Shown one piece after another: positions 9,299-44,300 of a DNA stretch of 64,000 bases. The notes under the pieces are model-generated. The model was not told where the DNA came from. It saw nothing but the letters and a program-made list of their open reading frames with translations, and ran no database searches. Source of the DNA: a candidate division Zixibacteria bacterium RBG_16_53_22 (GTDB taxonomy: Bacteria; Zixibacteria; MSB-5A5; UBA10806); NCBI GenBank assembly GCA_001775395.1, contig MEWP01000130.1, positions 74,921 through 138,920 on the forward strand. Direction: 5' to 3'. Numbering within the stretch: position 1 is the first letter of the stretch; the number at the start of each line of letters is the position of its first letter. The position numbers were made by a program, and so were the translations under genes.

Positions 9299-9354
9299 GC
9301 CTGACGATGATACCATCGACCTATTATTTGATTTCAATATCTGGAGGAACGAAA

Positions 9355-11934: not shown

Positions 11935-11937
11935 TAA

Positions 11938-24285: not shown

Positions 24286-25272
<987 letters not shown>

Positions 25273-25382
25273 TAGCGAGTAGCCAATAGCCAGCAGCGAA
25301 AAATGCAGGGGCGCAGCATGCTGCGCCCGATATTCTGTAAAATATAAACAGATGTGTCAGGTCTGAAGACCCGACACCACCG

Positions 25383-26288: not shown

Positions 26289-26291
26289 GAA

Positions 26292-28225: not shown

Positions 28226-29226
28226 GATTCTATTCGGTTGGATACCTTTATCTATTGCTGGCGCTACCCCTTTTTCTCGCATTAGCCCTGCTCTTCGGCA
28301 AGGTCCGCAAGGCGCGCGCTAATAGAATAGGCAATCCCGATACTATCGGCAGGCTGTTCGGCCGAGTGCATGTAACCAACGCGAACATGGCCATGATAGT
28401 CTTCCTGGTCGGACTGGCCTTCATCATAGCGGCCATGGCGCGCCCCCAATACCCCGGTGGGGTCGAGCGAGTGGAGGCGCGCGGCGGTAAGGTCGTAATC
28501 GCCCTCGACATATCATTGTCGATGCTGGCCCAGGATTTCCAGCCCAACCGCCTCGAGAAAGCCAAGCGCGAGATAATCGCCCTGGTGGAGAAACTCAAGG
28601 CCCAGTCGATGGGGTTGGTAGTGTTCGCGGGCGAGGCTTTTGTGCAATGCCCGCCGACAATCGATTACTCGGCATTCAGGCTTTTTCTCGATGTGGCATC
28701 CGTGGGCATGATCTCCGATACCGGAACCGACCTGGCCGACGCAATCAATGTTTCGACAGTCCTTCTCGATGACGGCTCGAATGTCGATAAGGCCATAGTA
28801 TTATTCACCGACGGCGAGATTTTCGAGGGCGACCCCGAGAAAGCGGCCTCGGAGGCGGCCGATAAAGGAATCAGGATATTCACGGTCGGCGTGGGAAGCA
28901 ACAGCGGCCGGCCGATACCCGAAATGAAGGGCGCCAGCGGGCTGAAGAAGAACAGCGAGGGCGAGATAGTCATTTCGCGGCTCAACGAGGAGCTCCTTGC
29001 CAGAACTGCCGATAAGGGAAACGGGAAATTCTATCGAGCCACGCCGGGAGAATCGGAGTTAGATGATATCTATGCCGATATCAAAGGCCTGAAAGGCGAG
29101 GAGAAAGAGACCAAATTCCGCACGATATACGCAGAGAAATATCGCTGGTTCCTTCTTCCAGGATTGGCCCTGATAGCGGCGGCTTCATTCATTCCGATGT
29201 CGAGGAGGGATGAATATGACAGTTAA
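28222..29226 (+). CDS. batB: BatB (vWA domain membrane protein)
   Basis: N-terminal TM, vWA 'ALDISLSM', 'IVLFTDGE'; 4-nt overlap with batA. Confidence 0.9.
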   Translation: MRFYSVGYLYLLLALPLFLALALLFGKVRKARANRIGNPDTIGRLFGRVHVTNANMAMIVFLVGLAFIIAAMARPQYPGGVERVEARGGKVVIALDISLSMLAQDFQPNRLEKAKREIIALVEKLKAQSMGLVVFAGEAFVQCPPTIDYSAFRLFLDVASVGMISDTGTDLADAINVSTVLLDDGSNVDKAIVLFTDGEIFEGDPEKAASEAADKGIRIFTVGVGSNSGRPIPEMKGASGLKKNSEGEIVISRLNEELLARTADKGNGKFYRATPGESELDDIYADIKGLKGEEKETKFRTIYAEKYRWFLLPGLALIAAASFIPMSRRDEYDS

Positions 29227-29992
29227 ATCATACAAGACGGGTGGCGTCAGATCCTCAGACCTGAAACATAATGTGCATTTTCTCTTTTATGCCTTGTTAA
29301 TGCTGCCGATACTCTCACATTTGGCATCCGCCGACGAATACCGCAGCAAGATCAATGATGGATTCGACCTATATAAGAACGGTGAGTACGACAAAGCCGC
29401 GCAGAGCTTCAAAGATGCCGGCATCCTGAAACCTGATCACGCGCTCCCGAATTACGATCAGGGGGCGGCTCTGTATAAGTCGAACGATTTCCAGGGCGCC
29501 GCCGACGCATTCGCGACAAGCGTCTCAAAAAACGATCCCAGGCTCAAGGCCGATTCGTATTACAATGCCGGCAACGCTTATGTGAAAGCCCAGCAATATG
29601 ACAAGGCTGTTCAGTCCTATATTAGCGCCCTGAAGATCGATCCCAAAGACGAGGACTACAAGCACAATCTCGAGATGGCCCTCCTGAAAAAGCAGATGCA
29701 ACAGCAGCAACAGCAACAGAACCAGGAACAGAACAAAGACCAGAAGAAGCAACAGCAACAGAAACAGGACCAACAGAAGGAGCAAGAGGAAAAACAGAAC
29801 GAACAGCAACAACAGGCCCAGAATAGAGATGAGAAGAAAGAGCAGCAACAACAGCAAGGCCAGCAGCAAAAGCAGCAAATGAACAAGGAACAAGCCGAAC
29901 AGCTTCTGGCCAGATATGAGGATGATGAGAAGGATACCCAGAAACGGCTTAAGCAAGTGATGATGAAAGGGCGGTCGATCAATGACTGGTAG
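29210..29992 (+). CDS. batC: BatC (TPR-repeat protein with C-terminal Q/E/K-rich low-complexity tract)
   Basis: TPR 'YYNAGNAYVKAQQYDKAVQSYISALKIDP'; poly-Q/E/K tail; operon position. Confidence 0.85.
   Translation: MNMTVKSYKTGGVRSSDLKHNVHFLFYALLMLPILSHLASADEYRSKINDGFDLYKNGEYDKAAQSFKDAGILKPDHALPNYDQGAALYKSNDFQGAADAFATSVSKNDPRLKADSYYNAGNAYVKAQQYDKAVQSYISALKIDPKDEDYKHNLEMALLKKQMQQQQQQQNQEQNKDQKKQQQQKQDQQKEQEEKQNEQQQQAQNRDEKKEQQQQQGQQQKQQMNKEQAEQLLARYEDDEKDTQKRLKQVMMKGRSINDW
29690..29880 (+). repeat. Low-complexity CAG/CAA/GAA/AAG-rich tract encoding the Q/E/K-rich tail of BatC; generates spurious antisense ORFs
   Basis: 'QMQQQQQQQNQEQNKDQKKQQQQKQDQQKEQEEKQNEQQQQAQN...QQQQQGQQQKQQ' directly visible. 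Confidence 0.9.
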
Positions 29993-31790
29993 AAATGCCG
30001 CTCTTTTTTCGCTTTTGTCGATCTTCTATCTGGCCTCGGCGGCCAGGGCACTCGAGATAAGCGCCTCGGTGGATAAACAAGAGGTCGGCGTGGGAGATCC
30101 GATTACGCTGAAGCTTGTTATCTCCGGCAAAGGCGGGACACTCCCCGAACCAACTATGCCCGACCTTTCGGCCTTCGACATTTATTCATCCGGGCGAAGC
30201 CAGAATATCTCGATAGTCAACGGAGCATTCAGCTCATCGCTAAATATGTCATACGTGCTCGTTCCCAAGAAAGTGGGAGATCAACTCATCGGGCCTATTG
30301 TGGTCCGAGACGGCGCCAATATGGCCGCCACAGAACCGATTAAGATAAAGGTCAATCAGCCCGTTGCGAGCCCGTCAGGACAGGGTCAGGGCCCGACGCC
30401 CCAACCACAGACTAAGCAGCCGGGGGGACGGCCTCAGCCACCCGATAAGGGCAGCGACTTCTTCATCGACCAGGTGGTTGATAAGACCTCCCCTTATGTC
30501 GGTGAACAGGTGACATTGACATTCCGATTCTACCAGGCTGTGAATTTATGGGATCAGCCGGCGCTCGAATGGCCCAAGTACAACGGTGTCACCGTCGAGG
30601 ACCTCACGGCCAATCATAGATACTACGAGGTTGTCCGCGGACGACGGTACCTTGTGACTGAAATCAAGAGAGCCCTCTTCCCCATCTCGTCGGGGAAAAT
30701 TCCGATTGATTCGCCGCGCTTGACAATCAAGCCCGATGATTTCGGTGTATCGTTCGATCCATTCGGCTTTTTTGATAAGGACCTTCGCGAGCTTTTCAAG
30801 CGGGGTCAGCCGAAAGTTCTGACTGCCAATGTCATCACATTGAATGTCAGGTCTCTTCCAGAATCCGGTAAGCCGGACAATTTCTCCGGCGCCGTTGGCA
30901 GGTATTCTATTAGCGCCGCGGCCGACAAAGATTCAGTCGGCGTGGATGAGCCGATCACTCTGAAACTCATCTTATCAGGCACCGGTAATATCCGCTCCGT
31001 TCCACCTGTGAAACTTCCCGACCTGCCCGATTTTCGCATTTACGATTCGGGAAATACCGAATCGGTCTCGAATACCAACCTGGTAATCTCCGGCACCAAG
31101 ACTTTCGAGCTAGCCATTATTCCAAGGACTTCGGGGGCCTACACGATACCGGCCATAACGTTCAGTTATTTTGACCCATCGAAGGGCAAGTACCAGACGA
31201 TCGCCACTAACCCTATCCGGATTACTGCCACCGGCGAGGGCCTGGCCGATGTCGGTGGCGCACCCAAGAATATTATCGGGAGCGCGGTTCAGGCCCTGGG
31301 ATATATTGTCACTGATTATCCTAAGAACTCCAGGCCGGTTGATTTATCGCGCAGTTTCTTCTTTTGGTTTTTCCAATTTATTCCGGCCGCGGCCATTATT
31401 GCGGCCATGGTTTACCGCACCAGAACTGCCAGACTCCTGAATGATCGAAGATATGCCCGCAGAGTGGGGGCCAGTCGCCGTTCGAAAGTTCTTTTCGAGA
31501 AGGCCGCCCAGTTGAAATCGCGCGGAGAAACGGAGAGCTTTTACGGGGCGCTGTACGATGCCATCCTGGGGTATGTCGCCGATAGGCTCGATCTGGAAAA
31601 ATCGGGTTTGACCATAGAACAGATCCGCTCAAACGACACGATCCCGGAAAATATCAAGGGCGACCTGGCCGAGTTCCTCGAAAGCTGCCAGAATGCGCGT
31701 TTTGCCCCGGGCGGCGCCGCGGCCAATCACGTCGACAAAATGATGGCCGGCGCCGGCGAGCTAATCGCTCGTTTGGAGACTGAAATATGA
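29982..31790 (+). CDS. batD: BatD (oxygen-tolerance protein; signal peptide, extracytoplasmic domains, TM, cytoplasmic tail)
   Basis: 602 aa; 'ISASVDKQEVGVGDPITLKLVISGKG...PDLSAFDIYSSGRSQNIS' BatD N-domain pattern repeated; TM 'FFFWFFQFIPAAAIIAAMVY'. Confidence 0.85.
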   Translation: MTGRNAALFSLLSIFYLASAARALEISASVDKQEVGVGDPITLKLVISGKGGTLPEPTMPDLSAFDIYSSGRSQNISIVNGAFSSSLNMSYVLVPKKVGDQLIGPIVVRDGANMAATEPIKIKVNQPVASPSGQGQGPTPQPQTKQPGGRPQPPDKGSDFFIDQVVDKTSPYVGEQVTLTFRFYQAVNLWDQPALEWPKYNGVTVEDLTANHRYYEVVRGRRYLVTEIKRALFPISSGKIPIDSPRLTIKPDDFGVSFDPFGFFDKDLRELFKRGQPKVLTANVITLNVRSLPESGKPDNFSGAVGRYSISAAADKDSVGVDEPITLKLILSGTGNIRSVPPVKLPDLPDFRIYDSGNTESVSNTNLVISGTKTFELAIIPRTSGAYTIPAITFSYFDPSKGKYQTIATNPIRITATGEGLADVGGAPKNIIGSAVQALGYIVTDYPKNSRPVDLSRSFFFWFFQFIPAAAIIAAMVYRTRTARLLNDRRYARRVGASRRSKVLFEKAAQLKSRGETESFYGALYDAILGYVADRLDLEKSGLTIEQIRSNDTIPENIKGDLAEFLESCQNARFAPGGAAANHVDKMMAGAGELIARLETEI

Positions 31791-32539
31791 AATCCGTGTT
31801 CGGATATTTCTTCCTGGTGCTGCTCATGGTTTCGACAGTGTCCGCGGCCACTAACGAGGAGCTCTGGAAGCAAGCCGCCGAATATTACGATGGCGGGCAG
31901 TACCAATCGGCAATCGAAAATTATCGAGTCCTTATTGAACGGCAATTTGAGAATGCTCAGGTTTATTACAACCTGGGCAATGCCTATTTCAAGGCCGGAG
32001 AACTGGGTCACGCCATCTGGAGTTTCCGCAAGGCCCTGAGGCTCGACCCCGGTTTCAAGCAAGCTAAGACCAGTCTCGAATATGCCCGCTCGTTTAACAC
32101 CGACCAGGTTTCGATAGAAAGGCGCGGCTTTATTCTCGATATTTGGGATTTTCTGAGCGGCCTGTTGTCGTCGAACGGATACCTGATTGTTTTATCAATA
32201 GCCTGGTGGCTGGCGGCGGCACTGCTCATTTATAAGATGATTCGCCTCGAAAGCCCATCATGGCTCTATTATCTGTTGATAGTTCCCCTGGTAATCATTA
32301 TCTTTGCCTCGGCGTCGGCGGCCAGGCGAATCAGCGAGGACAGATTGACGCGCTGGGGGGTGATCTCGCGGGAGTCCGCGGATATTCGTGAAGGTCCCGG
32401 CGTCGAATTCAATCGCCTCGAGGTCGGGCACGAGGGGCTCGAGTTCAAGATCCTCAACGATAGGGAAAACAGCTTTCTGATTGAGCTGAGGAACGGCCTG
32501 GTGGGCTGGGTCGGCAAAGAAGCTGTGCTGGAAATTTGA
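31787..32539 (+). CDS. batE: BatE-like (TPR + TM helices + C-terminal SH3-like domain)
   Basis: TPR 'YYNLGNAYFKAGELGHAIWSFRKALRLDPGF'; two TM; C-terminal 'LIELRNGLVGWVGKEAVLEI' SH3b-like; 4-nt overlap with batD. Confidence 0.75.
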   Translation: MKSVFGYFFLVLLMVSTVSAATNEELWKQAAEYYDGGQYQSAIENYRVLIERQFENAQVYYNLGNAYFKAGELGHAIWSFRKALRLDPGFKQAKTSLEYARSFNTDQVSIERRGFILDIWDFLSGLLSSNGYLIVLSIAWWLAAALLIYKMIRLESPSWLYYLLIVPLVIIIFASASAARRISEDRLTRWGVISRESADIREGPGVEFNRLEVGHEGLEFKILNDRENSFLIELRNGLVGWVGKEAVLEI

Positions 32540-33585
32540 GACTGCTCAAATCAAAGAGATTCTGGGGCATGCTGCTGACAGTGGCCCTCCTGGTCTACTG
32601 CTTTTACGATTTCAATTTTCACCAGGTGCTGGCCGCCATCTCCCAGATAAACTACTGGTATATTATTCCGCTTATATTCCTCGAGGCCATAATCGCATAT
32701 ATCCGGTCGCTGCGTTTGAAATTTCTCATTGACCCCGTGAAAAAAATTAAGGCCAACGACCTCTACCCCATCTACTGCATCGGCATGATGACCAACCTGC
32801 TGATGCCATATTTGACCGGCCAGCTGGCGCGTATTTACCTTCTCAGTAAGAAGGGGCAGCTTAAGAAAACATTTCTCTTCACAACCACCGTCCTGGAAGT
32901 TCTTTTCGACGGTATGGCGCTTCTGGGGATCACCTTTGTTATGTCGATGTTTTTCGTGCTGCCCGACGAGTTTCGGGCCTGGCATTTTTTTGTCATGGGG
33001 GGCGTTGTCATCGCCGCCTCGTTGGCGCTGATATTCCTCTCGCGCATGAGAAATTTGGGCGCTCGGATTTTCCAGGGGCTGAGTCGCGCCATGCCCTCCG
33101 CGGTGGGGCGAAAAATCAATGATGTGACGCATTCGTTCTTCTCGGCCCTCGAGGCGCTCAAGAGCACCAAGCATTTCTTCCTGGTTTCCACCTTGTCGGT
33201 GATGTCGTGGGTGGCCCAGGCCGGCTTGGTCTATCTCCTGGTCGTGGCCTTCGGATTCAATATCACGCTTTGGGGCGCGGTCATTATCACCGTAATCGTG
33301 ACCATAATGATGATTGTCGTGTTGGCTCCGGCCAATATCGGCACATTTCAGGCCGCCACCATGGCCGCTTTGAAGCCCTTTGACGTAGTCAAGGCGCCGG
33401 CGCTGGCCTTCTCTTTCTTGCTTCATATCGCCGTATATCTCCCGCCGATAATCCTGGGCGCTTTTTTCTCATTTAAGGAAGGACTGACCCTGAAACAACT
33501 CCGGGTCGAGGGGGAAAAGGCTGCCGAGGGAATCGGTTCCATCGAAACAATCGGCCAGACAGATGGAGCGGCGGAATCAAACTGA
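32536..33585 (+). CDS. UPF0104/LPG-synthase-TM family (flippase-like) integral membrane protein, translationally coupled to batE
   Basis: 349 aa, 8 TM; N-terminus 'RFWGMLLTVALLVYCFYDFNFHQVLAAISQINYWYIIPLIFLEAIIAYIRSLRLKFL' typical of flippase-like domain family. Confidence 0.7.
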   Translation: MRLLKSKRFWGMLLTVALLVYCFYDFNFHQVLAAISQINYWYIIPLIFLEAIIAYIRSLRLKFLIDPVKKIKANDLYPIYCIGMMTNLLMPYLTGQLARIYLLSKKGQLKKTFLFTTTVLEVLFDGMALLGITFVMSMFFVLPDEFRAWHFFVMGGVVIAASLALIFLSRMRNLGARIFQGLSRAMPSAVGRKINDVTHSFFSALEALKSTKHFFLVSTLSVMSWVAQAGLVYLLVVAFGFNITLWGAVIITVIVTIMMIVVLAPANIGTFQAATMAALKPFDVVKAPALAFSFLLHIAVYLPPIILGAFFSFKEGLTLKQLRVEGEKAAEGIGSIETIGQTDGAAESN

Positions 33586-33707: not shown

Positions 33708-34427
33708 GTGACGAATTTCACAAGGCCAACCATAATAAGACGAGCCAGAGTCATCGATAAAATACTGGCCGTGAAATATGGCCCCAAATCGCTTGTGAGG
33801 AGGTCCGAGCCGACCTCCGAGCTTATCTGCACTATCCTTTCGCAGAATACCAACGACATTAACCGTGACAAGGCATTCGCCGGGCTTCGGCGCAGATTCC
33901 CCAGCTGGCGGGATGTCGCCGGCGCCAGGCCGAACGAAATAGCGAAAGCGATCAAAGTAGGTGGGCTTTCGAAGATCAAATCCGCTCGAATCAAGAATAT
34001 CCTCAGTCAAATTGCCGAAAAGTCATCCGATCTGACTCTTTCGTTTTTGGAAAGCATGCCGGACAATGAAATCTGGGACTACCTGATTTCATTCAAGGGA
34101 GTCGGCCCGAAAACGGCCTCATGCGTCCTGCTGTTTTCACTGGGCCGGCATGCCATGCCTGTCGATACCCATGTCCATCGTGTCGGCCGGCGCCTGGGTC
34201 TGATTCCTGAAAAGTTGAATCCCGAAAAGGCGCACCACTGGTTTCTGCAGTTAAACCTGCCCCTGAATATCTACCAACTTCACATAAATATGATATGGCA
34301 CGGCCGACAGCTTTGCAGACCGCGCAATCCCAAGTGCCCGCCATGCCCGCTAAAAAAAATGTGCCTTTACTATAGGCAGAATCCTCCCCAGGAAAAGGGG
34401 CGGGAAATCAAACGGTTAGTAATTTAA
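33708..34427 (+). CDS. nth: Endonuclease III-like HhH-GPD DNA glycosylase with [4Fe-4S] cluster loop
   Basis: 'LICTILSQNTNDINRDKAF', HhH 'FKGVGPKTASCVLLFSLGRHAMPVDTHVHRVGRRLGL', Cys cluster 'CRPRNPKCPPCPLKKMC'. Confidence 0.85.
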   Translation: MTNFTRPTIIRRARVIDKILAVKYGPKSLVRRSEPTSELICTILSQNTNDINRDKAFAGLRRRFPSWRDVAGARPNEIAKAIKVGGLSKIKSARIKNILSQIAEKSSDLTLSFLESMPDNEIWDYLISFKGVGPKTASCVLLFSLGRHAMPVDTHVHRVGRRLGLIPEKLNPEKAHHWFLQLNLPLNIYQLHINMIWHGRQLCRPRNPKCPPCPLKKMCLYYRQNPPQEKGREIKRLVI

Positions 34428-34524
34428 CGATATGCAATGGCGCAATTTTAGCCCCCAAGTAATGGTTGACACAGACTGGCCCGATGTTTATTATTCCTCG
34501 CGAGAAAATTAGGCGAAGGTTGTA

Positions 34525-35004
34525 ATGGATAATGTCAATGTGCTCAGAACCGGATTTTACGCGCTCGATTTTGCGCTCCCCGATACCAACGGCGATATTT
34601 ATAAATTGAGCGATCACCTCAAAAGCAATTTCGTCGCCGCCTGCTTTTTCCCGAATGGCGAAAATGAGAAGGTGAACGCCTTCTTGAAAGACTTGAACCA
34701 GGGCCTGCCTAACACGGCCTCGGGATTGCCTGTAAACGTAGTCGGCATATGCCCCAAGCGGGTCGACAACCTCAAGGCGTTCAAGGTTAAGCTGAAATTG
34801 AGCTTTCCGGTCCTCTCCGACCATCAACTCCTGGTTGCGACCAGATACCATGTGGTCGATAGCTATGGCATCAGGCCGGCGGTATACTTTTCGATTTTCG
34901 TCATCGATGATTACTGCCTGATCAGATTCAGGGCGAGCGAGGTACCGGGTCTTTCGAAATATCTGCCCGAGGAATTCCGGGCGGAAGTGGCCAAAATTGT
35001 GTAA
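34525..35004 (+). CDS. Thioredoxin-fold AhpC/TSA (peroxiredoxin)-like protein lacking the peroxidatic cysteine
   Basis: 'GFYALDFALPDTNGDIYKLSDHLKSNFVAACFFPNG...' aligns to Prx 'PDFTL..G..V.LSD..GK.VVL.FYP' but the FTPxCT motif is replaced by 'NGENEKVN'; chosen over overlapping antisense ORF 34408-35013 which has no recognisable features. Confidence 0.5.
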   Translation: MDNVNVLRTGFYALDFALPDTNGDIYKLSDHLKSNFVAACFFPNGENEKVNAFLKDLNQGLPNTASGLPVNVVGICPKRVDNLKAFKVKLKLSFPVLSDHQLLVATRYHVVDSYGIRPAVYFSIFVIDDYCLIRFRASEVPGLSKYLPEEFRAEVAKIV

Positions 35005-35071
35005 TTTTTGCAAAACAATTGGCTAAATACCCCGTAATCGTTTCTGTATAAGGGCCCCTGGCCCATATTTT

Positions 35072-36442
35072 GTGACTGAAATGAGGAGTATGATAAAAAT
35101 CATAAATATGCGGAAAATTATAATAGGACTGACACTAAGCATCGTTTTCGGGGGCGCCCCCGACATCTTGGCCAAGGATACGCTGGTCATCGACCTAACC
35201 AAGGCCTTCGACCTGGCCCTGGAAAGAAACGAGTCGATACTCATTGCCAAGAAGGAGATGGACAGGGCCAATGCCGGAATCATGGAGGCGGTAGCGGGAG
35301 CCCTCCCCCAAGTCACCGGCGGCATAACTTACTTAAGGAATTGGGAGATACCCACCGGAGTCTTCCAAATGGACAATGAGGAGGTTCGCTTCAAATTCGG
35401 TACCGAGAACAATTTCACGGCCGGAATAACCTTGAATCAGCCTCTATACTCAGGCGGCAGAACACTGACGGCCCTGCAGATTGCCTCGTTGGCTAAGAAA
35501 CTCGTCAGGCATTCGATCAGGCAGGCTACCCAGGATTTAAAATTCCAGGTTTACAGTACTTTCTATGGCACCCTCCTGGCTCAAGACGTATTGGAGGTTA
35601 ATCTCGAATCATTGCAACTGGCCGAGGATAACCTCGACCAGGTCCAGAAAATGTACGACCAAGGCGTATCCGCCGAATTCGACCTTCTGCGCGCCAGGGT
35701 GGCGGTGGCCAACCTTCAACCGGCCGTGATCAAGGCCAGGAACGACGCTAAGGTTGCAATGGATGCGTTTAAGAATATGCTCGGGATCGAGTTGGGCATG
35801 CCGGTCGATCTGGTGGCCGATCTCGACTCATCTAATTTCATACTCCCACCGGTCGATCACGAGACGGCTGAGCAAGAGCTGATGAAAAACAGGCCCGAGT
35901 TGAATATGAGCGAAATGAATACCTCCATAAACAAGAAGCTCATTACGATGGCGAGCGCCGGCTATAAGCCGATTCTGAATTTCTCGACATCTCTTCAGTA
36001 TCAAAGGCAATTCGATCGCGGCGGAGTCTTCGACCGCAGTTGGGATCGCAGCCTCAACAGCGTGGTTTCGCTTCAAATCCCGATTTTCGATTCCTGGAGA
36101 ACTCCCAGCCAGGTAAAACAGGCCAGGGTCGAATATGCTCAAAGCATGCTCCAGGATCAGGCCGTGCGCAAGGCCTTGATACTCGATTTCGAGCAGAGCC
36201 TGGGGCGCTATCTCGAATCCAGGAATCGCCTGGCCGCGCAGGGAGATGCGGTGGAATTGGCGCGACGAGGCCTATCGATTGCCAACGTTAGATTCGAAAA
36301 CGGCGTAGGCACCCAGCTCGAGGTGGCCGACGCCCGCTTATCGTTATCGGTAGCAGAGATAAACAGGGCATCTGCCTACCATGACCTGGCCATAAGTTAT
36401 GCGGCCCTCCTGAGATCATTGGGCAGAGATATAAATCCGTGA
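35072..36442 (+). CDS. TolC-like outer membrane efflux protein (OMF)
   Basis: 456 aa; signal peptide; two-repeat OMF pattern ('LDLTKAFDLALERNESILIAKKEMDRA', 'LQPAVIKARNDAKVAMDAFKNMLG', 'GTQLEVADARLSLSVAEINRASAYHDL'). Confidence 0.85.
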   Translation: MTEMRSMIKIINMRKIIIGLTLSIVFGGAPDILAKDTLVIDLTKAFDLALERNESILIAKKEMDRANAGIMEAVAGALPQVTGGITYLRNWEIPTGVFQMDNEEVRFKFGTENNFTAGITLNQPLYSGGRTLTALQIASLAKKLVRHSIRQATQDLKFQVYSTFYGTLLAQDVLEVNLESLQLAEDNLDQVQKMYDQGVSAEFDLLRARVAVANLQPAVIKARNDAKVAMDAFKNMLGIELGMPVDLVADLDSSNFILPPVDHETAEQELMKNRPELNMSEMNTSINKKLITMASAGYKPILNFSTSLQYQRQFDRGGVFDRSWDRSLNSVVSLQIPIFDSWRTPSQVKQARVEYAQSMLQDQAVRKALILDFEQSLGRYLESRNRLAAQGDAVELARRGLSIANVRFENGVGTQLEVADARLSLSVAEINRASAYHDLAISYAALLRSLGRDINP

Positions 36443-36445
36443 TGC

Positions 36446-37540
36446 ATGAGAACGAGGAATGACATGAAAAGACTGAATAATATCATAATATTGAATCTGC
36501 TGGCGATGGCGATATTATCTTGCGGCGGTAAAAAGCGGGAGGTCGCGGTCGAAGAAAAGGCGGTGCCCGTTACTGTGGCGCCGGCCGCCTTCTCGGATAT
36601 CACCGTCAGCAAAACCTATACCGGCAGCCTCGAGGGCTGGAAACAGGCCAGAATCTACGCCTCGATACCCGAAGCCGTGGTGGAATTACCGTTCGCGGAG
36701 GGCAGCGAGGTGCAAGCAGGGCAGGCAGTCATTGTGCTGGATCGGGAAGGGCCGGCCTCGCAACTCAGGCAGGCTACGGCTGTCTATCAGGATGCCAAGG
36801 ATAATTTCGACAAGATGTCGCGCCTCTACGAGCAGGGCGCCATCTCCGAACAGACTTTTAATAACATGAAAACCAATCTCGATGTCGCCAGGGCCAATTA
36901 CGAGGCCGCCCGCCAGCAGGTCGAATTGACCAGTCCCATCTCCGGCATCCTGACCGATCTGGCCGTAAATATCGGTCAATATGTGCCGCTCGGCGTGCCG
37001 TTGGCAACCATTGCCGAGACCGGCAAGATGCGCATGACCGTTTATGTCGATGGCCGTAGCGCCCCTTTCCTCAAGGCCGGCCAGAAAGCGCAAATCTCCA
37101 TCTCCTCGGTCGGCGGCGTCGATACCTCCATCGAAGGCTCTGTTCGGGAGGTGGCCCGCTCGGCCGATCCCGAGACAAGGCTGTTTCGAACCGAGCTTCA
37201 TATTGATAATAGACAAGGCAGGTTGAGCCCCGGTATGTTCGCGCGCGCCGTCATCGTGGTCGAGAAGCTGACAAACGTGCTTACGGTGCCCCGAGAGGCG
37301 GTATTCTTCACCGAGGGCATTCCCAAAGTCTTCGTTATTGATGAGAAAAATCGGGCCAGAGAACTGGGCCTCGAGGTCGGCCAGAGTACGCTCGAGCGAT
37401 ATCAGGTCATCTCGGGTCTTAATGAAGGCCAAAATGTCATCGTCCTTGGCCGCAATCAGGTCGAGAATGGAAGCCTCGTGAAAGTGATGGAGGATTTAAA
37501 CGCCGTCACCGACGCACCAGAGGAAACCAGGGAAAGTTAG
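36446..37540 (+). CDS. RND efflux periplasmic adaptor (membrane fusion protein, HlyD/AcrA family)
   Basis: Lipoprotein-like N-terminus 'LAMAILSCGG'; coiled-coil/lipoyl/beta-barrel MFP pattern ('YTGSLEGWKQARIYASIPEAVVELPFAEGSEVQAGQAVIVLD', 'SPISGILTDLAVNIGQYV'). Confidence 0.9.
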   Translation: MRTRNDMKRLNNIIILNLLAMAILSCGGKKREVAVEEKAVPVTVAPAAFSDITVSKTYTGSLEGWKQARIYASIPEAVVELPFAEGSEVQAGQAVIVLDREGPASQLRQATAVYQDAKDNFDKMSRLYEQGAISEQTFNNMKTNLDVARANYEAARQQVELTSPISGILTDLAVNIGQYVPLGVPLATIAETGKMRMTVYVDGRSAPFLKAGQKAQISISSVGGVDTSIEGSVREVARSADPETRLFRTELHIDNRQGRLSPGMFARAVIVVEKLTNVLTVPREAVFFTEGIPKVFVIDEKNRARELGLEVGQSTLERYQVISGLNEGQNVIVLGRNQVENGSLVKVMEDLNAVTDAPEETRES

Positions 37541-37543
37541 AAT

Positions 37544-40500
37544 ATGTATTTATCCAATACCGCAATAAAACGTCCGGTTTTCGCCACCATGGTTATCCTG
37601 GCCCTGGTGGTACTCGGAATGGTGTCGTACAATCAGATGAATGTCGACCTGTTCCCGGATATCGAATTTCCGTTCGTAGTGGTCACGACCATTTACCCCG
37701 GCGCGGCCCCGGAGGCGGTGGCCACCGATGTTACTCAGAAAATAGAAGACGCCGTCAATCCTATCGCCGGAGTCAACCATATCACGTCGACCTCATTTGA
37801 GAGCGTTTCCCAGATATTCATAGAATTCACTCTGGAAACGAGAGCTCCAGAGGCGGCCCAGGAGGTCCGCGAAAAAGTCGCGGCTATCAGATCAGACCTA
37901 CCCCAGGATATTGAAACTCCCTTGATTCAGCGCTTCGACCCCGAGAGCAGACCGATAATATCGCTGGTCATGTCGGGCAACCGCTCGCAAAGGGAGTTGA
38001 CCACGATTGCCGACAAGGTTGTCAAACGGCAGTTGGAATCAATCGAGGGCGTGGGAGCAGTCGAGATTGTCGGCGGCAGCGAGCGTCAATTCCAGGTCCT
38101 GCTTGACCTGGATGCTATGAATGCACGGATGATAACCTTTCAGGATGTCTCCTCGGCCATTGCCGCATCAAATTTCGAGCTCCCCGCCGGCAGATTGGAC
38201 CGTCCGGGAAGCGAGATCCTCGTGCGCACCATGGGGCGTTTTTCCTCCATCGATGATATCAAGGATGTGGTCGTTAAGAATACCAATGGTAAGGTCATCA
38301 GGCTTGCCGACATTGCCGGCATCTACGACGGTATAAAAGACCAGCGCAGCCTATCGCGATATAACGGCGCCGAGGCTGTCACTCTGCAGATATCACGGCA
38401 ATCCGGGGCCAACACGGTCAAGGTCGCCGAATCAGTCAAGGAGGAGCTAAGCAGCATTCGCAAGCAACTCCCCGTCGGAGTCGGTGTCGATGTCGCCCAG
38501 GATAACTCGATCTGGATCGAAGACTCGCTGCTGGACGTGCAAATGACTATCCTCTACGGCGGCGCCCTGGCAATTTTGTGTATATTCCTTTTCCTGGCCA
38601 ATATCCCGGCTACGATTATCTCGGCCATCGCTATCCCCACCTCGATTATCTCGACCTTCATATTCATGAGGGCGTTGGGATTCACTCTCAACATCATGTC
38701 GCTTCTGGGGCTGTCGCTGGCGGTCGGGCTCCTGATCGATGATGCCATCGTGGTCATAGAGAATATCTACCGCCACATGGCTCATGGTGAGTCACCGATC
38801 GAGGCCGCCCGCAATGGGACATCCGAAATCGGCCTGGCGGTCATGGCGACTACCTTCTCGATAGTTGTGGTGTTTGTGCCGGTGGCATTCATGTCGGGTA
38901 TCGTGGGAAGGTTTTTCTACCAATTCGGACTGACCGTGGCCGTGGCGGTAATGGCATCGCTGTTCGTGGCATTCACGTTGACTCCGATGATGTCATCGCG
39001 CTTCTTAAGGCAGGAAAAGCACCTGTCAAAGGACACCCGAAATCCCATAAAGCTCGCTCTTTACTATTGGAATCACGCTTTTCAACTAATGGGTAATTAC
39101 TACCGGACGACTTTGGCCTGGGTATTGCGTCACCGTTTTATAACTCTGGTTGGAGCTTTCGCCGGATTTGCCATATCGATGTATCTGGCGCGGTTCCTGG
39201 GATTCGAATTCCTTCCACAACAAGACCAATCGCAATTCTATATCACATTCGAGGCCGCCGCCGGCTCTTCTCTTCAGCAGACTTCCGACCTGTCTTCGAA
39301 AATCGAGGATATCATCGCATCGCACGACGATGTCCTCAAGTATCAACTCCTCACTATCGGCGGCGAGTTGACTCCTGTTAATGAGGGATCAATATATGTC
39401 AAGATGCGCGATCGTGGCGATCGCGACGTCTCGGTTTTCGATTTTACACCGACCCTGCGAAAAGAGCTCGCAACTGTTCCCGGCTTAACCACCAGCGTCC
39501 AAATCGAGGAGAGCGAGGGTGGCGGCTCCAAGCCGGTCGAATATTCTATCCGGGGCCAGGATTACGAAAAGCTTACCTGGATTGCAGGCCAGATCGAGGC
39601 CGTTGTCAAGCAGGCCCCGGGCGCGGTCGAGGTCGAGAACAGCGAAAAACAAGCGCGTCCGGAATTGCGTATCGGCGTCGATCGCGAGCTGGCCGACGAC
39701 CTCGGGCTTAACCTTGCCCTGATCGGCGGCACTGTCAGGAGCCTCGTCGATGGCGCCGAGGTCAGCCGTTTCAAGGAAGGTGACGAGGAATACGAGATTA
39801 ATGTCCAGTTAGCTCCCGAGTATAGAGTCGACGAGGAGAACTTGAACAGCATTTATATACCCTCCTCCAAGAAGGTCAATGGCCAAGATATATTGGTCCC
39901 TTTGCGGCAGGTGGCGACTATTTACCAGTCCACCGCGCCAACCGAGATAAAGAGGTTTGACAGGCAACGCGAGATCAGGGTCGGCGCTAATATCGGCGCC
40001 GGACATGTCATGAGCGACATTCTGCAGTACACGGAAAGCCGACGATCGGAGATCGATCTGCCGCCGGGCTATACATTCACGCCTGTCGGCGAGGCGGAAA
40101 TACAGCAGGAGTCGTTCCAGAATATTTTCGCCGCCCTGTTCTTGGCGATCATCTTTATCTACATATTGCTGGCTTCTCAATTCGAATCGTTTGCCGATCC
40201 CTTCTCGATGGGTATGTCGCTGCTGATGGCGCCGGTTGGCGCCATCCTGGCTCTACTCATTTTCAATACCCCCAATTCGATCATGTCGATGATCGGCATC
40301 GTTCTCCTCATGGGGCTTGTGACCAAGAACGCCATATTACTGATAGATTTCATAAAACAGGCCCGGCGTCGCGGCATGGACCGCACCGAGGCGATCCTGC
40401 AGGCCGGCCCGATCCGCCTTCGCCCAATCATGATGACGACTCTGGCCATGATCTTCGCCATGCTGCCTCTGGCGTTCGCTTTCGGTCCTGGCGCCGAGCT

Positions 40501-40699
40501 GCGCGCTCCGATGGCGCAGGCGGTGATCGGTGGACTGATGTCATCAACGGCCCTGACTCTCATCATCGTGCCGATTGTTTATACCCTGCTCGATGACCTC
40601 GTGGCTTTCGTAACGGGCAAGAAAAGAAGGGCTAAACGGGCTCTGAAATACGGCCCCTCTGCAGGAACCAACGATAGGTCGCCTGCGGTTGAAGATTGA
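37544..40699 (+). CDS. RND family efflux transporter (AcrB/HAE1-like), 12 TM, two large periplasmic loops
   Basis: 1051 aa; N-terminus '[50 protein letters not shown]'; conserved '[11 protein letters not shown]' in TM4. Confidence 0.95.
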
Positions 40700-42327
40700 T
40701 TATGCATGAGGTTGAATTCGATAAGATAACTGGCACGTCAAAGCTGTTCCTGGACTACATCAATTGCCGACAACCCGCCTGTCGTTACTTCGGATACGAT
40801 TTTACCGAAATCTCGGCGTACCGGACGGTAGCGGAACAAGTCACCCGCAAAAAATACGATCGCGAGAAGCTGGCCTCCATCATCACGGGGGCCGCTTCTC
40901 GTTTTTATATCTCTGAAAACGCCCGGAAAAATATCGAAAAGCTGAAGCAACCCGATTCCCTTTGCGTCTTCGCCGGCCAGCAAGCGGGGCTGCTGCTTGG
41001 CCCAATGTATACTGTCCTGAAAGCTCTGACCGCCTATAAGCTGGCCGAGTCGCTTGAAAAAGAGCTTGGACAGCCGGTGGTACCTTGTTTCTGGACAGCC
41101 TCCGATGACCACGATTTCGATGAGATCAAAACGGTTTCTTTTCTCAATCGAGATGGCGAATGTAAGAGCGCATCCTTCATCCCCGAGAGCAGTCATCCCG
41201 GCGCGCCGATGGCAGACATCGCGTTGGATGGCAATATCGACTTATTTCTATCTCAGGTCGATGAGAGCCTGACTCAGACCGAATTCACCTCCGACATAAA
41301 GAAACTCGTCCGCAATTCCTACAGGGCCGGCAGATCGATATCCGAGGCATTTATCGACCTGTTTAATCGGCTTCTTGGCGGATTCGGGATAGTCCCGGTC
41401 GACCCTAATTTCCCCGGCATGAAGGCCATGTTTAAGCCGATGTTTAGAAGGGAAATCGAGGACCACACTCGCATATTCGAGCTATTCAAATCGCGCTCGC
41501 GCGAGATTGTCTCTGACGGCTACCACAGACAGGTGCATAAATCCGCCGACACCCTGAACCTCTTCTATAATGACGGCCAGAGACGGAATATCATATTCGA
41601 TGGCGAGGGGTATCGGCCCGATGGGGCCGAGCCGCGCCTTTCGCAAGATGAATTGACTGGATTGCTCGAGAGGGAACCTGACAAATTCTCGGCCAACGTG
41701 ACACTCAGGCCGATTGCTCAAAACTTCGCCTTCCCGACAATCGCCCAAATTGCGGGGCCATCGGAAGCCGCATACTTCGCTCAGATACAGCCGCTGTTCG
41801 AATTTCATGAAGTACCCTGGCCGGTTGTCAGGCCGAGAATTTTCGCCTCCCTGCTCGAGCCTCACATCGCCAAAATAATGGCAAAGCTGGGGATTGAATT
41901 CGCCGGCCTGGCCAACGACCTCGAGTTCGAAGTGGGCCGCGTGATTGGAAAGAATTTCCCGGCCGAGATCCAGCAGCAGGCCGATGCCCTGCGCACGAAG
42001 ATGGAAGAGCCACTCGCGAAGCTGGCCGAGGAAGTAAAAAAGACTGACCTGGAGAGTTATCAGGCAATAGACCACACGCGGCGGCGTATCGACCATGAGT
42101 TGAATCACCTCTCGAAAAAGTTATTTATGGCTCATAAGAAGAAACATGAGGACGCCAGGAAAAGAATTTATAAAGTGGCCGCCTTTCTTCTGCCCGGCGG
42201 CAAATTTCAGGAGAGGGTTCTCTCGCCCGTTTATTTCGCGAATAAATTCGGGCCTGACCTGTTAAAAGGGATCGAGGCAAAATTGCAGCTCGATTCCCGG
42301 GCGCACCAATTGGTGGAGATAGCCTGA
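40696..42327 (+). CDS. bshC: Bacillithiol biosynthesis cysteine-adding enzyme BshC
   Basis: 543 aa; 'KLKQPDSLCVFAGQQAGLLLGPMYTVLKALTAYKLAESLEKELGQPVVPCFWTASDDHDFDEI' closely matches Bacillus BshC (YllA) 'KLKDPSSAAVVGGQQAGLLTGPLYTIHK...KELQVPVIPIFWVAGEDHDLDEI'; 4-nt overlap with RND gene. Confidence 0.85.
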   Translation: MIMHEVEFDKITGTSKLFLDYINCRQPACRYFGYDFTEISAYRTVAEQVTRKKYDREKLASIITGAASRFYISENARKNIEKLKQPDSLCVFAGQQAGLLLGPMYTVLKALTAYKLAESLEKELGQPVVPCFWTASDDHDFDEIKTVSFLNRDGECKSASFIPESSHPGAPMADIALDGNIDLFLSQVDESLTQTEFTSDIKKLVRNSYRAGRSISEAFIDLFNRLLGGFGIVPVDPNFPGMKAMFKPMFRREIEDHTRIFELFKSRSREIVSDGYHRQVHKSADTLNLFYNDGQRRNIIFDGEGYRPDGAEPRLSQDELTGLLEREPDKFSANVTLRPIAQNFAFPTIAQIAGPSEAAYFAQIQPLFEFHEVPWPVVRPRIFASLLEPHIAKIMAKLGIEFAGLANDLEFEVGRVIGKNFPAEIQQQADALRTKMEEPLAKLAEEVKKTDLESYQAIDHTRRRIDHELNHLSKKLFMAHKKKHEDARKRIYKVAAFLLPGGKFQERVLSPVYFANKFGPDLLKGIEAKLQLDSRAHQLVEIA

Positions 42328-43451
42328 TGAAGATCGGCATTGTCTGTTATCCGGTCAAGGGCGGTTCCGGCGTGGTGGCCTCCGAGCTTGGATTGGCACT
42401 GTCGGCCATTGGTGTGGAGGTGCATTTCTTTTCGTATGCCTTGCCGTTCCGCCTCACCGGCTTCGACGAGAAATTCATCTTTCATCAGGTCGAGGTCTCC
42501 GATTACCCCCTCTTTCAGCATTCCCCGTACACTCTAACCCTGGCCACCAGGCTTGCGGACGAGTCGCGGCGCGTCGGGCTCGACATAATTCACGCCCATT
42601 ACGCCATTCCGCACGCCGTCAGCGGCTATATCGCTAAACAGATTCTTGGAGGCAGGCTGCCCAAACTTATCACGACATTACACGGCACAGATATAACTCT
42701 GGTTGGGCTTGATCCTTCCTTTTTTGCCGTCACGAAATTCTCCATGGAGGTCAGCGACGCGCTGACTACGGTAAGCAGATATATTTACGATAAGACCTAT
42801 GAGTCATTCGGCATCACCAAACCTATCAAGGTCATTCACAACTTTGTGGACAACGAACGTTTTAAGCCAAGCCAGAAAGGGTGCGATCGTTCGATTTTTG
42901 CCCGGCCGGATGAGAAGATAATCATGCATATGTCGAATTACAGGCCGGTCAAGAATGCCACTGACGTCGTCCGCGTTTTCAAGATGATAAACGATCAGAT
43001 ATCATCACGGTTAGTTCTCATCGGCGACGGCCCCGACGCGCCAAATGTGCTTCGGTTGGCCGACAAGCTCGGCCTCAAGGATCGCACGCTATTTCTCGGC
43101 GGACAGGATACTGTTGAAACCATACTCTGCAAGGCGGACCTGTTCTTGTTGCCGTCGGCCTCCGAGGCGTTCGGCCTGGCGGCCCTGGAGGCGCTGGCCT
43201 CGGGCGTGCCGGTCGTTGGTTCCATCGTTGGAGGGCTGCCCGAGCTGGTGAAGGATGGAGAGGTCGGTTACCTGGCGCCAATTGCCGATGTTGAGACCAT
43301 GGCCAGCCGTTCTCTGGAGATACTATCGAACCCCGACCTGCATCGCAAGATGGCTGAAAATGCCAGAAAACTGACAGTCGAAAAATTCGATACCAAAGCA
43401 GTGGTGAAGCAGTATTATGATTTTTATGAAGAGGTGCTGGCGAGAGATTAA
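42327..43451 (+). CDS. bshA: BshA, N-acetyl-alpha-D-glucosaminyl L-malate synthase (GT4 glycosyltransferase)
   Basis: 'MKIGIVCYPVKGGSGVVASELGLALSAIGVEVHFFSYALPFRL...DIIHAHYAIPHAVSGYIAKQ...TTLHGTDITLVGLDPS' near-colinear with B. subtilis BshA; 1-nt overlap with bshC. Confidence 0.9.
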   Translation: MKIGIVCYPVKGGSGVVASELGLALSAIGVEVHFFSYALPFRLTGFDEKFIFHQVEVSDYPLFQHSPYTLTLATRLADESRRVGLDIIHAHYAIPHAVSGYIAKQILGGRLPKLITTLHGTDITLVGLDPSFFAVTKFSMEVSDALTTVSRYIYDKTYESFGITKPIKVIHNFVDNERFKPSQKGCDRSIFARPDEKIIMHMSNYRPVKNATDVVRVFKMINDQISSRLVLIGDGPDAPNVLRLADKLGLKDRTLFLGGQDTVETILCKADLFLLPSASEAFGLAALEALASGVPVVGSIVGGLPELVKDGEVGYLAPIADVETMASRSLEILSNPDLHRKMAENARKLTVEKFDTKAVVKQYYDFYEEVLARD

Positions 43452-43484
43452 AGCGGCGGCCGGAATGAATCAGGGCTTTTCTCA

Positions 43485-44300
43485 TTGACAGTCGCTGGAT
43501 GTTATTTGAAAGATAGCGTTCCATTAAACATGACCGAATTCTCAAGCGATCAGCTCGAAAACCCAAGAAATGATATGAAACTCGAACACATCAAACTGCA
43601 TGTCCTGGCCATCGCCGCTCACAGGGATGATACCGAGATCACATGCGGCGGAACTATCATTAAACTGGTCGATCTCGGCTATTCGGTCGGTATTCTGGAT
43701 CTGACCGCCGGCGAATCCGGCAGCCGCGGAAATGCCGACACGAGAGCCGATGAGGCCAGGTGCGCCTCTGGAATCATGGGTTTGAAATTCCGCCATAACC
43801 TGGAATTGCCCGACGCCGGCCTTTTCCTGACACAGGAGAATGCCCTTAAGATCGCCGAGGTTGTCAGGCAGACAACTCCCGAGCTTGTCATCCTGCCCTA
43901 CTGGAAACAACGCCATCCCGATCACGCTACCGCCTCCGACCTGGGCTACCGGGGATGTTTTCTCGCGGGGCTTTCGAAAATGCCGATTCCGGGGGACGCA
44001 TATCGGCCCAGGAAGATAATTTACACGACCTCTTTCCATGATATCGAGCATAATTTTGTGGTGGACATCACAAGCCAGTTCGAGCGCAAGTGCCGGGCCG
44101 TGGCCTGTTATAAGACTCAATTCGAGGAACGTCCGGATGTCCGCGAGGTCTACCCGCCCGCCAGAAATATATTTGACTATATGGAAATCAGGGCTCGCCA
44201 GTATGGCTACATGATCGGTGTCAAATACGCGGAGTGTTTTGTCCAGAAGGAGAAACTCGCTGTCGATGATCCCTTGAAATTACCGGGCAAATCGATATGA
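43485..44300 (+). CDS. bshB: BshB-type PIG-L/LmbE family deacetylase (N-acetylglucosaminyl-malate deacetylase)
   Basis: 'HVLAIAAHRDDTEITCGGTIIKLVDLGYSVGILDLTAGESGSRG' (AHPDDE-like metal site), 'RHPDHATAS'; follows bshA. Confidence 0.85.
   Translation: MTVAGCYLKDSVPLNMTEFSSDQLENPRNDMKLEHIKLHVLAIAAHRDDTEITCGGTIIKLVDLGYSVGILDLTAGESGSRGNADTRADEARCASGIMGLKFRHNLELPDAGLFLTQENALKIAEVVRQTTPELVILPYWKQRHPDHATASDLGYRGCFLAGLSKMPIPGDAYRPRKIIYTTSFHDIEHNFVVDITSQFERKCRAVACYKTQFEERPDVREVYPPARNIFDYMEIRARQYGYMIGVKYAECFVQKEKLAVDDPLKLPGKSI

Follow-up and report, generated by a model that had tools for sequence, protein, structure and literature searches.

The genome of the candidate division Zixibacteria bacterium RBG_16_53_22 carries, in a 64,000-nucleotide (nt) stretch of contig MEWP01000130.1 (positions 74,921 to 138,920; hereafter the window, whose own numbering is used below), the genes of a tripartite resistance-nodulation-division (RND) efflux pump directly ahead of genes for bacillithiol (BSH), a thiol of low molecular weight. 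What does this locus, tolC-mfp-rnd-bshC-bshA-bshB, represent: an accident of assembly or neighbourhood, a module that makes a thiol and expels it, or an operon in which efflux and thiol synthesis are coupled through regulation? A reading of the DNA without database searches (the sequence-only reading) had placed six co-directional genes here, and open reading frames (ORFs) were found for all six at window positions 35072-44300:

35072-36442, plus strand: tolC-like gene for the outer-membrane efflux protein (OEP), ORF from GTG 35072, with ATG 35108 as the likely real start
36446-37540, plus strand: mfp, gene for the membrane fusion protein (MFP) or adaptor, ORF, with an alternative start (ATG 36464) preceded by a Shine-Dalgarno sequence
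37544-40699, plus strand: rnd, permease gene, ORF of 1051 amino acids (aa)
40702-42327, plus strand: bshC, from ATG 40702, with TTG 40696 as the alternative start
42327-43451, plus strand: bshA, ORF, its start overlapping the bshC stop
43575-44300, plus strand: bshB (bshB1), start ambiguous between TTG 43485, ATG 43530 and ATG 43575

The junctions read from the sequence largely agreed with those described before. Gaps of 3 nt separate tolC from mfp (21 nt if mfp starts at ATG 36464) and mfp from rnd, and bshC and bshA overlap by 1 nt (TGATG). The 4-nt overlap proposed between rnd and bshC requires TTG 40696; alignments of bshC orthologues begin at ATG 40702 and favour this start, which leaves a 2-nt gap, and the junction is tight either way. 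The portrayal of all six genes as tightly packed held for the co-directional unit and the other junctions, but not for bshA/bshB, where the spacer measures from 33 nt (TTG 43485) up to 123 nt (ATG 43575), unlike in most relatives, whose bshA and bshB overlap. Alignments of BshB orthologues begin at residues 16-22 of the ATG 43530 translation, which fits ATG 43575 (codon 16), although the spacer (43452-43574) may instead encode an N-terminal extension of BshB. This spacer was rejected as a structured or mobile element, its fold being no better than those of shuffles (z=+1.17) and no second copy being present in the window. A convergent pyrC gene marks the 3′ end of the unit. From tolC to bshB, the genes thus share one strand, are joined by short or overlapping junctions and keep their adjacency across divergent genomes, as members of an operon do, and a single transcript with translational coupling of the six genes is predicted with good support.

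The family assignments of the three Bsh proteins and the pump were evaluated by profile searches, in which all three Bsh proteins passed curated NCBIfam equivalog cut-offs. In detail, BshC scored 445.8 bits against TIGR03998 (cut-off 265.8) and has both Pfam domains, PF10079 (312 bits) and PF24850 (89 bits), that is, the Rossmann-like and coiled-coil parts. BshA scored 493 bits against TIGR03999 (cut-off 273.7), compared with 137 bits for the next glycosyltransferase family 4 model and 84 bits for MshA, so that the possibility raised earlier of a generic family 4 glycosyltransferase does not apply. BshB1 scored 241.2 bits against TIGR04001 (cut-off 182.5) and only 27 against the BshB2 model (cut-off 195), and its metal motif AHRDD was seen within LAIAAHRDDTE. 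BshC is the cysteine-adding enzyme, BshA the GlcNAc-malate synthase and BshB1 the GlcNAc-Mal deacetylase; bshC-bshA-bshB therefore encodes a complete predicted bacillithiol pathway.

The three pump genes were equally well assigned at the level of broad families. The tolC product matches Pfam OEP with 204.5 bits (cut-off 22) in two repeats and carries a signal peptide (N-terminus MRKIIIGLTLSIVFGGAPDILA), with a score of 135 bits, below cut-off, against TIGR01844. The mfp product passes TIGR01730 (201.8 bits, cut-off 94.9) and is a lipoprotein adaptor with the lipobox LSCGG; the Pfam names 'BSH_RND' and 'BSH_CzcB' found on such adaptors refer to barrel-sandwich hybrid domains, not to bacillithiol. 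The rnd product matches Pfam ACR_tran over residues 4-1016 with 956 bits (cut-off 28), and its closest solved structure is Escherichia coli MdtB (498 bits). The permease is 100% identical to a protein of Zixibacteria bacterium RBG_16_53_22. Its proton relay is intact, with Asp-Asp in transmembrane segment (TM) 4, Lys in TM10 and Arg/Thr in TM11, and the TM11 stretch RLRPIMMT is kept in all pump groups. With the full ACR_tran architecture and this relay the permease is an HAE1-type RND protein (AcrB/MdtB-like), and with the adaptor and the two-repeat, signal-peptide-bearing OEP beside it a complete tripartite pump is encoded. However, the named multidrug RND models gave scores below their cut-offs (NF033617, 890 vs. 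1250; NF000282, 623 vs. 1250), as did the MdtC (598 vs. 1774) and MdtB (577 vs. 1584) equivalogs, so the substrate class of the pump is not assignable by homology. A heavy-metal RND (CusA/CzcA, TIGR00914) was rejected on a score of 503 bits against a cut-off of 701 and on the HAE1-type Asp-Asp motif in TM4. Judged by its sequence, the pump is a functional-looking, generic HAE1 type.

To determine how widely pump and bshCAB are linked, a BshC-anchored scan of one genome per species was made, which yielded 48 loci (given L numbers below) that were analysed by tblastn synteny mapping. The order pump-bshCAB was found in 15 of them, including L013, which holds a remnant only. BshC is 52-61% identical to that of the window in the linked loci L001-L008 and L028, and ~32% identical in L009, L010, L012, L019 and L020. 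With the window counted, and the duplicate L050 (= L049) and the L013 remnant left out, there are 24 non-redundant intact linked loci from independent assemblies, among which the adjacency is kept down to ~31% BshC and ~50% RND identity. Three chromosome-level Zixibacteria records (CP070742, CP070813 and LS998015) carry the intact unit. The unit was also found in at least four flanking contexts: after a COX/SCO1 cluster (L049/L050), beside genes for a thiamine-pyrophosphate enzyme and an aldehyde dehydrogenase (L052), after a response-regulator gene (L056), and, in the remaining loci, after a block of Bat aerotolerance and LPG-synthase genes.

A neighbour-joining tree of 134 RND homologues resolved three groups, two of them the main linked groups and the third a sister group (all trees here are neighbour-joining, with moderate support). 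Outside the sister group, bshC lay directly downstream of the pump in 12/12 context look-ups, which included lineages outside both main linked groups (P0090/L056, P0067/L060 and P0114/L061). By comparison, all three sister-group pumps looked up (L051, L055 and L059; one record is labelled Ignavibacteria) were without bsh genes. They keep the layout TetR-OEP-MFP-RND, and the slot of bshCAB is taken by a short gene:

L051 11273-11572, L055 11243-11536 and L059 10144-10443: gene of ~99 aa following rnd

The L059 copy passes the PG0541-family model (NF045581), and those of L051 and L059 gave weak P-II Pfam matches. DinB-superfamily genes lie near two of the three sister-clade pumps (L051 940-1389, L055 11540-12064); the DinB superfamily includes bacillithiol S-transferases, and the proximity may be a coincidence, such genes being abundant.

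In the BshC-anchored set, the pump was not seen in loci labelled Melioribacteraceae/Ignavibacteriaceae, KSB1, Hydrogenedentota, Gemmatimonadota, Acidobacteriota, Bacteroidetes or Flavobacteriales; the exception, L007, is labelled 'Ignavibacteria', yet clusters inside the Zixibacteria clade. No upstream RND pump was scored in 30 BshC-anchored loci with >3.5 kb of upstream sequence, a number that includes the pump-less L011 and L023 but also the linked L005 and the remnant-bearing L013. The rnd gene of L005 matches as two pieces in different frames (~8265-8269), which could reflect a frameshift error of long-read assembly or a pseudogene. The neighbourhood survey that the sequence-only reading had proposed thus found the juxtaposition conserved across a phylum, not unique to one assembly. 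These results indicated that the pump-bshCAB operon is real, ancient and phylum-characteristic of Zixibacteria.

On the full data with AcrB as outgroup, the linked pumps were monophyletic (64% bootstrap; 97% for the unlinked group), and 22 alignment columns cleanly split them from the sister group. Zixibacteria are a single clade in the BshC tree, and the pump-less L011+L016 and L023, as well as L013, nest among linked members. In L011 and L016, batD-TPR-lpgS runs straight into bshCAB, and in L023 the order is lpgS-CorA-bshC. L013 (CP070766.1) has at 9022-9927, directly upstream of bshC, a 300-aa RND C-terminal remnant that corresponds to RND residues 727-1027 (57% identical), while the rest of the pump and adjacent bshA/bshB are missing; the locus looks like a decaying copy of the operon. 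Because pump-less genomes nest among linked ones and L013 retains this remnant, the linkage is taken as ancestral with later losses, and the simplest history suggested by the trees would be a single early fusion in Zixibacteria followed by at least three losses of the pump. Three Zixibacteria lineages lost the pump but kept bshC, two of them also bshA. The rnd-bshC spacing is -29 to +10 nt in 17/24 loci, +34 to +53 nt in four (L002, L004, L006 and L008), and +88, +154 and +199 nt in L056, L060 and L061, respectively, which are the lineages outside both main linked pump groups. This distribution suggests that the junction was progressively compacted over evolution.

The DNA immediately upstream of the unit in the window belongs to the block mentioned above:

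24286-33585: MoxR-DUF58-BatA/B-TPR-BatD-TPR 'aerotolerance' operon and an LPG_synthase_TM gene

Synteny of this block with bshCAB holds across Zixibacteria, in genomes with and without the pump, which makes the bacillithiol and Bat genes long-standing neighbours.

The candidate control elements upstream of the pump differ between branches. A tetR gene heads the unit in L010, L012, L053, L054, L057 and L058 (the g1 branch) and in L049 and L061; in the five g1 loci measured, -4 to +10 nt separate its stop from the OEP start. Five divergent genomes have, ahead of tetR, a TTGACA-17-TATAAT promoter followed directly by AGATACYnnnCGGTAGGTAT, an imperfect palindrome that is a candidate operator and is present in two copies in L010:

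L010 ~3700-3770, L012 ~3640-3670, and L053, L054 and L058 upstream of tetR: promoter and candidate TetR operator

Autoregulated TetR operators classically have this layout, with a promoter and an adjoining palindrome at tetR. Given the conserved promoter and the palindromic candidate operator, the whole string tetR-oep-mfp-rnd-bshC-bshA-bshB is predicted to be ligand-inducible in these genomes. In the 64-kb window, no tetR was detected by tblastn with the L010 TetR (E<1e-6, ≥40% query coverage). The gene and operator layout of a TetR-autoregulated efflux operon is thus found in the relatives and not in the window.

The window's branch, clade A, comprises 10 genomes (the window, L001-L008 and L028), and its units are preceded by other elements:

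33708-34427, plus strand: hhh, gene for an EndoIII-family DNA glycosylase (Pfam HhH-GPD), accessory to the module in this branch
34466-34494, plus strand: promoter P1, σ70-type TTGACA-17-TATTAT, upstream of prxL, 11/12 to consensus and the best match of the region
34525-35004, plus strand: prxL, gene for a PrxQ/BCP-fold pseudo-peroxiredoxin (Pfam AhpC-TSA, PF00578, 50.7 bits)
35052-35072, plus strand: GC hairpin (GGGCC-cct-GGCCC) with a T-rich tail, from a terminator scan, just upstream of tolC

Use of the σ70 consensus is justified by the presence of a housekeeping σ70 gene (rpoD) in the window. The P1 pair, TTGAC(A)-N17-TAT(T/A)(A/T)T, is kept in 10/10 clade-A genomes amid diverged flanking non-coding DNA. 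So is the hairpin, a 5-bp CGGGC-N4-GCCCG stem with a T-run: the prxL stop lies 44-49 nt ahead of it, and the next ATG, about where tolC begins, follows it at 7-25 nt. The stem of the hairpin is constant, its loop variable and its ΔG -6 to -10 kcal/mol (~-9 for the window stem, 35052-35064); possible roles are those of a weak terminator or attenuator, of a stem in the 5′ untranslated region or of a palindromic DNA operator. Rfam searches of the prxL-tolC and bshA-bshB spacers gave no match at E≤1. A second promoter directly after the prxL stop (TTGAAA/TTGCAA-17/18-TAnTTA), plausible in several relatives and weak in the window, was rejected.

The product of hhh shows a C-terminal CX6CX2CX5C Fe-S motif in its translation, and its best NCBIfam matches, the DR2438-like monofunctional glycosylase and nth, are both below cut-offs. 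The gene lies upstream of the pump in L001-L008, L028, L049, L052 and L056, overlaps tetR by 4 nt in L049, and in many genomes a CorA gene is interposed. For prxL, the distance of 67 nt from its stop (35004) to the tolC GTG (35072) was as reported, but the description of its product as cysteine-less was mistaken: the window protein has 3 Cys, none of which is invariant across 21 orthologues, and what is missing is the peroxidatic T-x-x-C (P-x-x-x-T/S-x-x-C) motif, the region reading FFPNGENEKV. The fold itself is that of a peroxiredoxin (AlphaFold model pLDDT 89; top Foldseek matches PrxQ/Bcp/AhpE, TM ~0.8), with F or S in the column aligned to the catalytic Arg of BCP. A functional peroxiredoxin was rejected since the catalytic Cys and the aligned Arg are both missing. 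The family is narrow (33 matches, which annotation pipelines label 'peroxiredoxin'), and it always occurs just upstream of the pump (window, L049 and L052). The orthologues in L049 (5116-5580) and L052 (5065-5532) are 31-32% identical and stand in the same position, and the invariants are an N-terminal MDNVNV(I/L)RxGF together with R8, D99, Y108, D128/D129 and R136. In L049, tetR, hhh, prxL, oep, mfp, rnd, bshC, bshA and bshB form a tight nine-gene string. Among the accessory genes, those for an EndoIII-like glycosylase and for a Prx-fold protein suggest a damage-response regulon.

The explanation that best accommodates these observations is a co-regulated stress operon for efflux, thiol synthesis and DNA repair, in which the pump need not transport any bacillithiol species; we consider this reading evenly poised between right and wrong. 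A stress signal would turn on a single promoter, the pump would rid the periplasm and inner membrane of toxicants that are amphiphilic or electrophilic, and co-translated BshC, BshA and BshB would raise the cytoplasmic bacillithiol pool to quench what enters, while in many lineages the EndoIII-like glycosylase of the same unit would repair the resulting oxidised or alkylated bases. Control would vary by branch, being TetR-gated in the g1 branch, L049 and L061, and of another kind in clade A, in which tolC is preceded by P1, prxL and the hairpin. Pump and thiol would in this way be coupled through regulation. What was observed is the identity of the genes, their adjacency and deep conservation, the movement of the unit as a whole, the compacted junctions, the conserved cis-elements and the intact proton relay; co-transcription, the nature of the inducer and the physiological role are predictions that the explanation adds.

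That the pump appears generic rather than dedicated to bacillithiol is part of this explanation, and it was evaluated at the putative substrate pocket. Numbered by alignment, at low identity, to an AcrB sequence (27/27 landmark residues verified), pocket positions were 0.32 identical between the two linked pump groups, against a porter-domain average of 0.415 (p≈0.035), and they were no more conserved between these groups than in linked-vs.-unlinked comparisons. The putative pocket changes common to both linked groups relative to the sister are AcrB 276→Arg, 624→Glu and 828→Gly. A pocket signature common to bshC-linked pumps was rejected, none being convincing and conservation being lower in the pocket than elsewhere in the porter domain. 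Together with the sister clade that has no bsh genes, the poorly conserved pocket mildly disfavours an export role for bacillithiol species.

Several points weigh against a stress operon coupled through regulation. Its co-transcription and co-induction are deduced from spacing and conserved non-coding elements, and a housekeeping redox buffer under a repressible efflux promoter would be physiologically odd. Lineage-specific, unconserved internal promoters may exist, and the 88-199-nt rnd-bshC spacers of three early-branching lineages could hold one. In the branch of the window itself, tetR is absent from the 64 kb. The presence of the pump clade beside bshCAB in every case examined would also be expected if pump function needed bacillithiol. 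Finally, the low-identity AcrB alignment behind the pocket numbering, and the moderate support of the neighbour-joining trees, temper the pocket and branching results.

The strongest alternative is that pump and pathway are coupled through the substrate, i.e., that the pump exports bacillithiol-derived species (BS-conjugates, mercapturic-acid products, the disulfide BSSB or BSH itself) across the envelope; we regard it as unlikely, though plausible. BSH might be exported for periplasmic or extracellular redox or metal chemistry, and the exporter would be encoded with its pathway as in biosynthetic clusters; PrxL could then serve as a thiol-binding or transferase-like helper, and BshB1 could act as the conjugate amidase. 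The constancy of the linkage speaks for this, as bshC follows directly on every pump of this clade examined (the 12/12 look-ups and the 15 BshC-anchored loci), outlasts relocation to different genomic contexts and stands where the sister clade has its PG0541-family partner. The few charge changes at putative pocket positions common to both linked groups, relative to the sister, fit as well, as does the reported contribution of MdtABC, whose MdtB is the nearest characterised relative, to export of enterobactin, an anionic siderophore, from the periplasm. A vacancy for such an exporter exists, since the one for BSH, BSSB and mercapturic acids is stated as not identified (PMC5790435).

The components expected of a thiol-conjugate export module (transferase, amidase and exporter) were, however, not assembled here. 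No DinB/BstA/YfiT-type S-transferase or BshB2/Bca-type amidase was present in the operon or among the scanned window ORFs of ≥110 aa, a scan that left out an edge-cut 184-aa ORF at 1-555 and a 201-aa minus-strand ORF overlapping prxL, although BshB1 might double as the conjugate amidase. RND pumps normally capture their substrates from the periplasm or outer leaflet, and no inner-membrane exporter is encoded in the operon. The accessory genes (DNA glycosylase, CorA and TetR) include no conjugation enzymes. Moreover, poor conservation of the pocket between the linked groups fits a polyspecific pump better than a single-metabolite one, the pump's family is a generic HAE1 one under TetR control, with a sister clade that is without bsh genes, and the three lineages that dropped the pump went on with bshC, two also with bshA. 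The fullest version, in which the pump exports a bacillithiol species across a diderm envelope, PrxL is a partner that binds bacillithiol or resembles a transferase, and a bacillithiol adduct is what TetR senses, appears to us improbable; if true, synthesis, conjugation and expulsion of the thiol would be united in one self-contained module, an RND-based counterpart in prokaryotes of the eukaryotic GS-X pump.

It is likewise doubtful that the juxtaposition is neutral, with a mobile TetR-OEP-MFP-RND cassette having landed between LPG-synthase/CorA genes and an already existing bshCAB cluster in an early Zixibacterium and having been kept by inertia, bshCAB being driven mainly by a promoter of its own inside or after rnd and no functional tie existing. 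The cassette is indeed present or absent within an otherwise conserved block, as comparison of batD-TPR-lpgS-(CorA)-[cassette]-bshCAB with the cassette-less L011, L016 and L023 indicates, the same pump layout occurs without bsh genes in the sister clade, the early-branching lineages have 88-199 nt between rnd and bshC, and bshC survived at least three losses of the pump. But the adjacency persists at ~50% RND and ~31% BshC identity, and the unit moves intact into at least four flanking contexts, which is rare for neutral neighbours. In most lineages the junction is overlapping or ≤10 nt, and the nesting of pump-less genomes in linked clades, with the L013 remnant, points to loss and not to repeated insertion. 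Nor was there a sign of a conserved embedded promoter. Third-codon conservation over the last 130 rnd codons (0.49-0.68) was not raised above the gene mean (0.59±0.06), and the σ70 scan gave nothing on the plus strand between 37826 and 42976; on both grounds a conserved internal promoter in the 3′ end of rnd is not indicated and was rejected.

A chimeric contig joining an efflux operon to a bsh cluster during assembly or binning, which the sequence-only reading had named as a way to be wrong, is next to impossible, for nothing beyond the source being a metagenome-assembled genome was found in its favour, GC content is flat across the region, and the junction recurs in the 24 non-redundant loci from independent projects and assemblers, including CP070742, CP070813 and LS998015. 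A horizontally acquired island was rejected on the flat GC content and the reproduction of the junction in many assemblies. To our knowledge, Zixibacteria are represented by metagenome-assembled (uncultured) genomes only.

Compared with known systems, the pump half of the unit resembles TetR-controlled HAE1 operons (MdtABC-TolC, and the FCB-type TetR-OEP-MFP-RND-PG0541 operon of L051/L055/L059) in the OEP-MFP-RND order, the lipoprotein adaptor and the D-D/K/R relay, and, in the window's relatives, in the co-directional tetR with a promoter-overlapping palindrome. It differs in that a whole bsh pathway, at near-zero or overlapping spacing, replaces the PG0541 gene after rnd, and in that tetR was lost from the window's branch, where a Prx-fold gene and a hairpin were gained. 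Similarity to systems that pair a low-molecular-weight thiol with export, such as the eukaryotic MRP/ABCC GS-X (glutathione S-conjugate) pumps, E. coli CydDC, which moves glutathione and cysteine to the periplasm, and the mycothiol Mca/mercapturic-acid pathway, is conceptual only. MRP/ABCC and CydDC are ABC-type and act on cytoplasmic substrates, whereas the Zixibacteria pump is an RND/proton antiporter, and the unit, having neither transferase nor dedicated amidase, is not a member of this group. A functional parallel for a regulatory coupling is Pseudomonas aeruginosa MexEF-OprN, which under the LysR-type MexT is induced by electrophile, disulfide or nitrosative stress, that is, efflux induced within a thiol/electrophile stress response; its thiol-metabolism genes belong to the regulon but are at other loci, while here thiol biosynthesis is fused with the pump in one operon.

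The bsh half consists of the same three enzymes as in Bacillus subtilis, each passing its equivalog model. In B. subtilis, bshA, bshB1 and mgsA form a co-transcribed cluster, whereas bshC is elsewhere, with its own promoter and also co-transcribed with panE (ylbQ), and the bsh genes are Spx-regulated and linked to coenzyme A and methylglyoxal genes (PMC5790435); the earlier statement that bshA-bshB1 and bshC occupy separate loci in Bacillus agrees with this review. In place of two Spx loci, the Zixibacteria genes follow an efflux pump as one contiguous C-A-B series, under TetR or other control. Contiguous bsh clusters on one strand (bshC-bshB-bshA or bshCAB) were also seen in records labelled Gemmatimonadota, Hydrogenedentota, KSB1 and Ignavibacteriales (L016, L031, L037, L039-L042), and no upstream RND pump was scored among them where >3.5 kb of upstream sequence was available.

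The single BshB of Staphylococcus aureus doubles as conjugate amidase, export of BSH or BSSB is described as 'not established', and the mercapturic-acid exporter as unidentified (PMC5790435). A broad phylogenetic survey of bsh genes, in which bacillithiol and its derivatives are put forward as the most widespread bacterial low-molecular-weight thiols, makes no mention of operons, clusters or transporters (PMC6282198). Our literature searches found no link of bsh genes to RND pumps and no prior description of the arrangement, so that the claim of a previously undescribed architecture stands, and, for bacillithiol in Zixibacteria, nothing beyond a passing mention in a mer-gene survey. The components are all ordinary members of known families; what is new is their association. 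It is the first conserved physical link that our searches found between a complete BSH pathway and any transporter, and it extends across a diderm candidate phylum, while BSH biology is known almost entirely from monoderm Firmicutes, in which the genes are scattered and Spx-regulated. A new regulatory logic is predicted, with bacillithiol synthesis and efflux both answering to a ligand-responsive TetR. All evidence is genomic, and the conservative explanation calls for no new biochemistry; even so it would mean that selection fused two independent detoxification layers into one operon. At ~9 kb, the unit is a clonable candidate for asking whether RND pumps handle thiol adducts, and the first genomic candidate for a bacillithiol-linked exporter.

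Elsewhere in the window, two further gene groups were observed:

5285-15222: large secreted proteins, namely a Peptidase_C25 protein of 1337 aa, a PorV-domain protein of 928 aa and an FG-GAP/Por_Secre_tail protein of 1094 aa
47486-50783, minus strand: iron-homeostasis cluster with a DtxR-type repressor fused to a FeoA domain, FeoB and a Fur-family regulator

The Peptidase_C25/PorV/Por_Secre_tail cluster indicates a type IX secretion system in this Zixibacterium.

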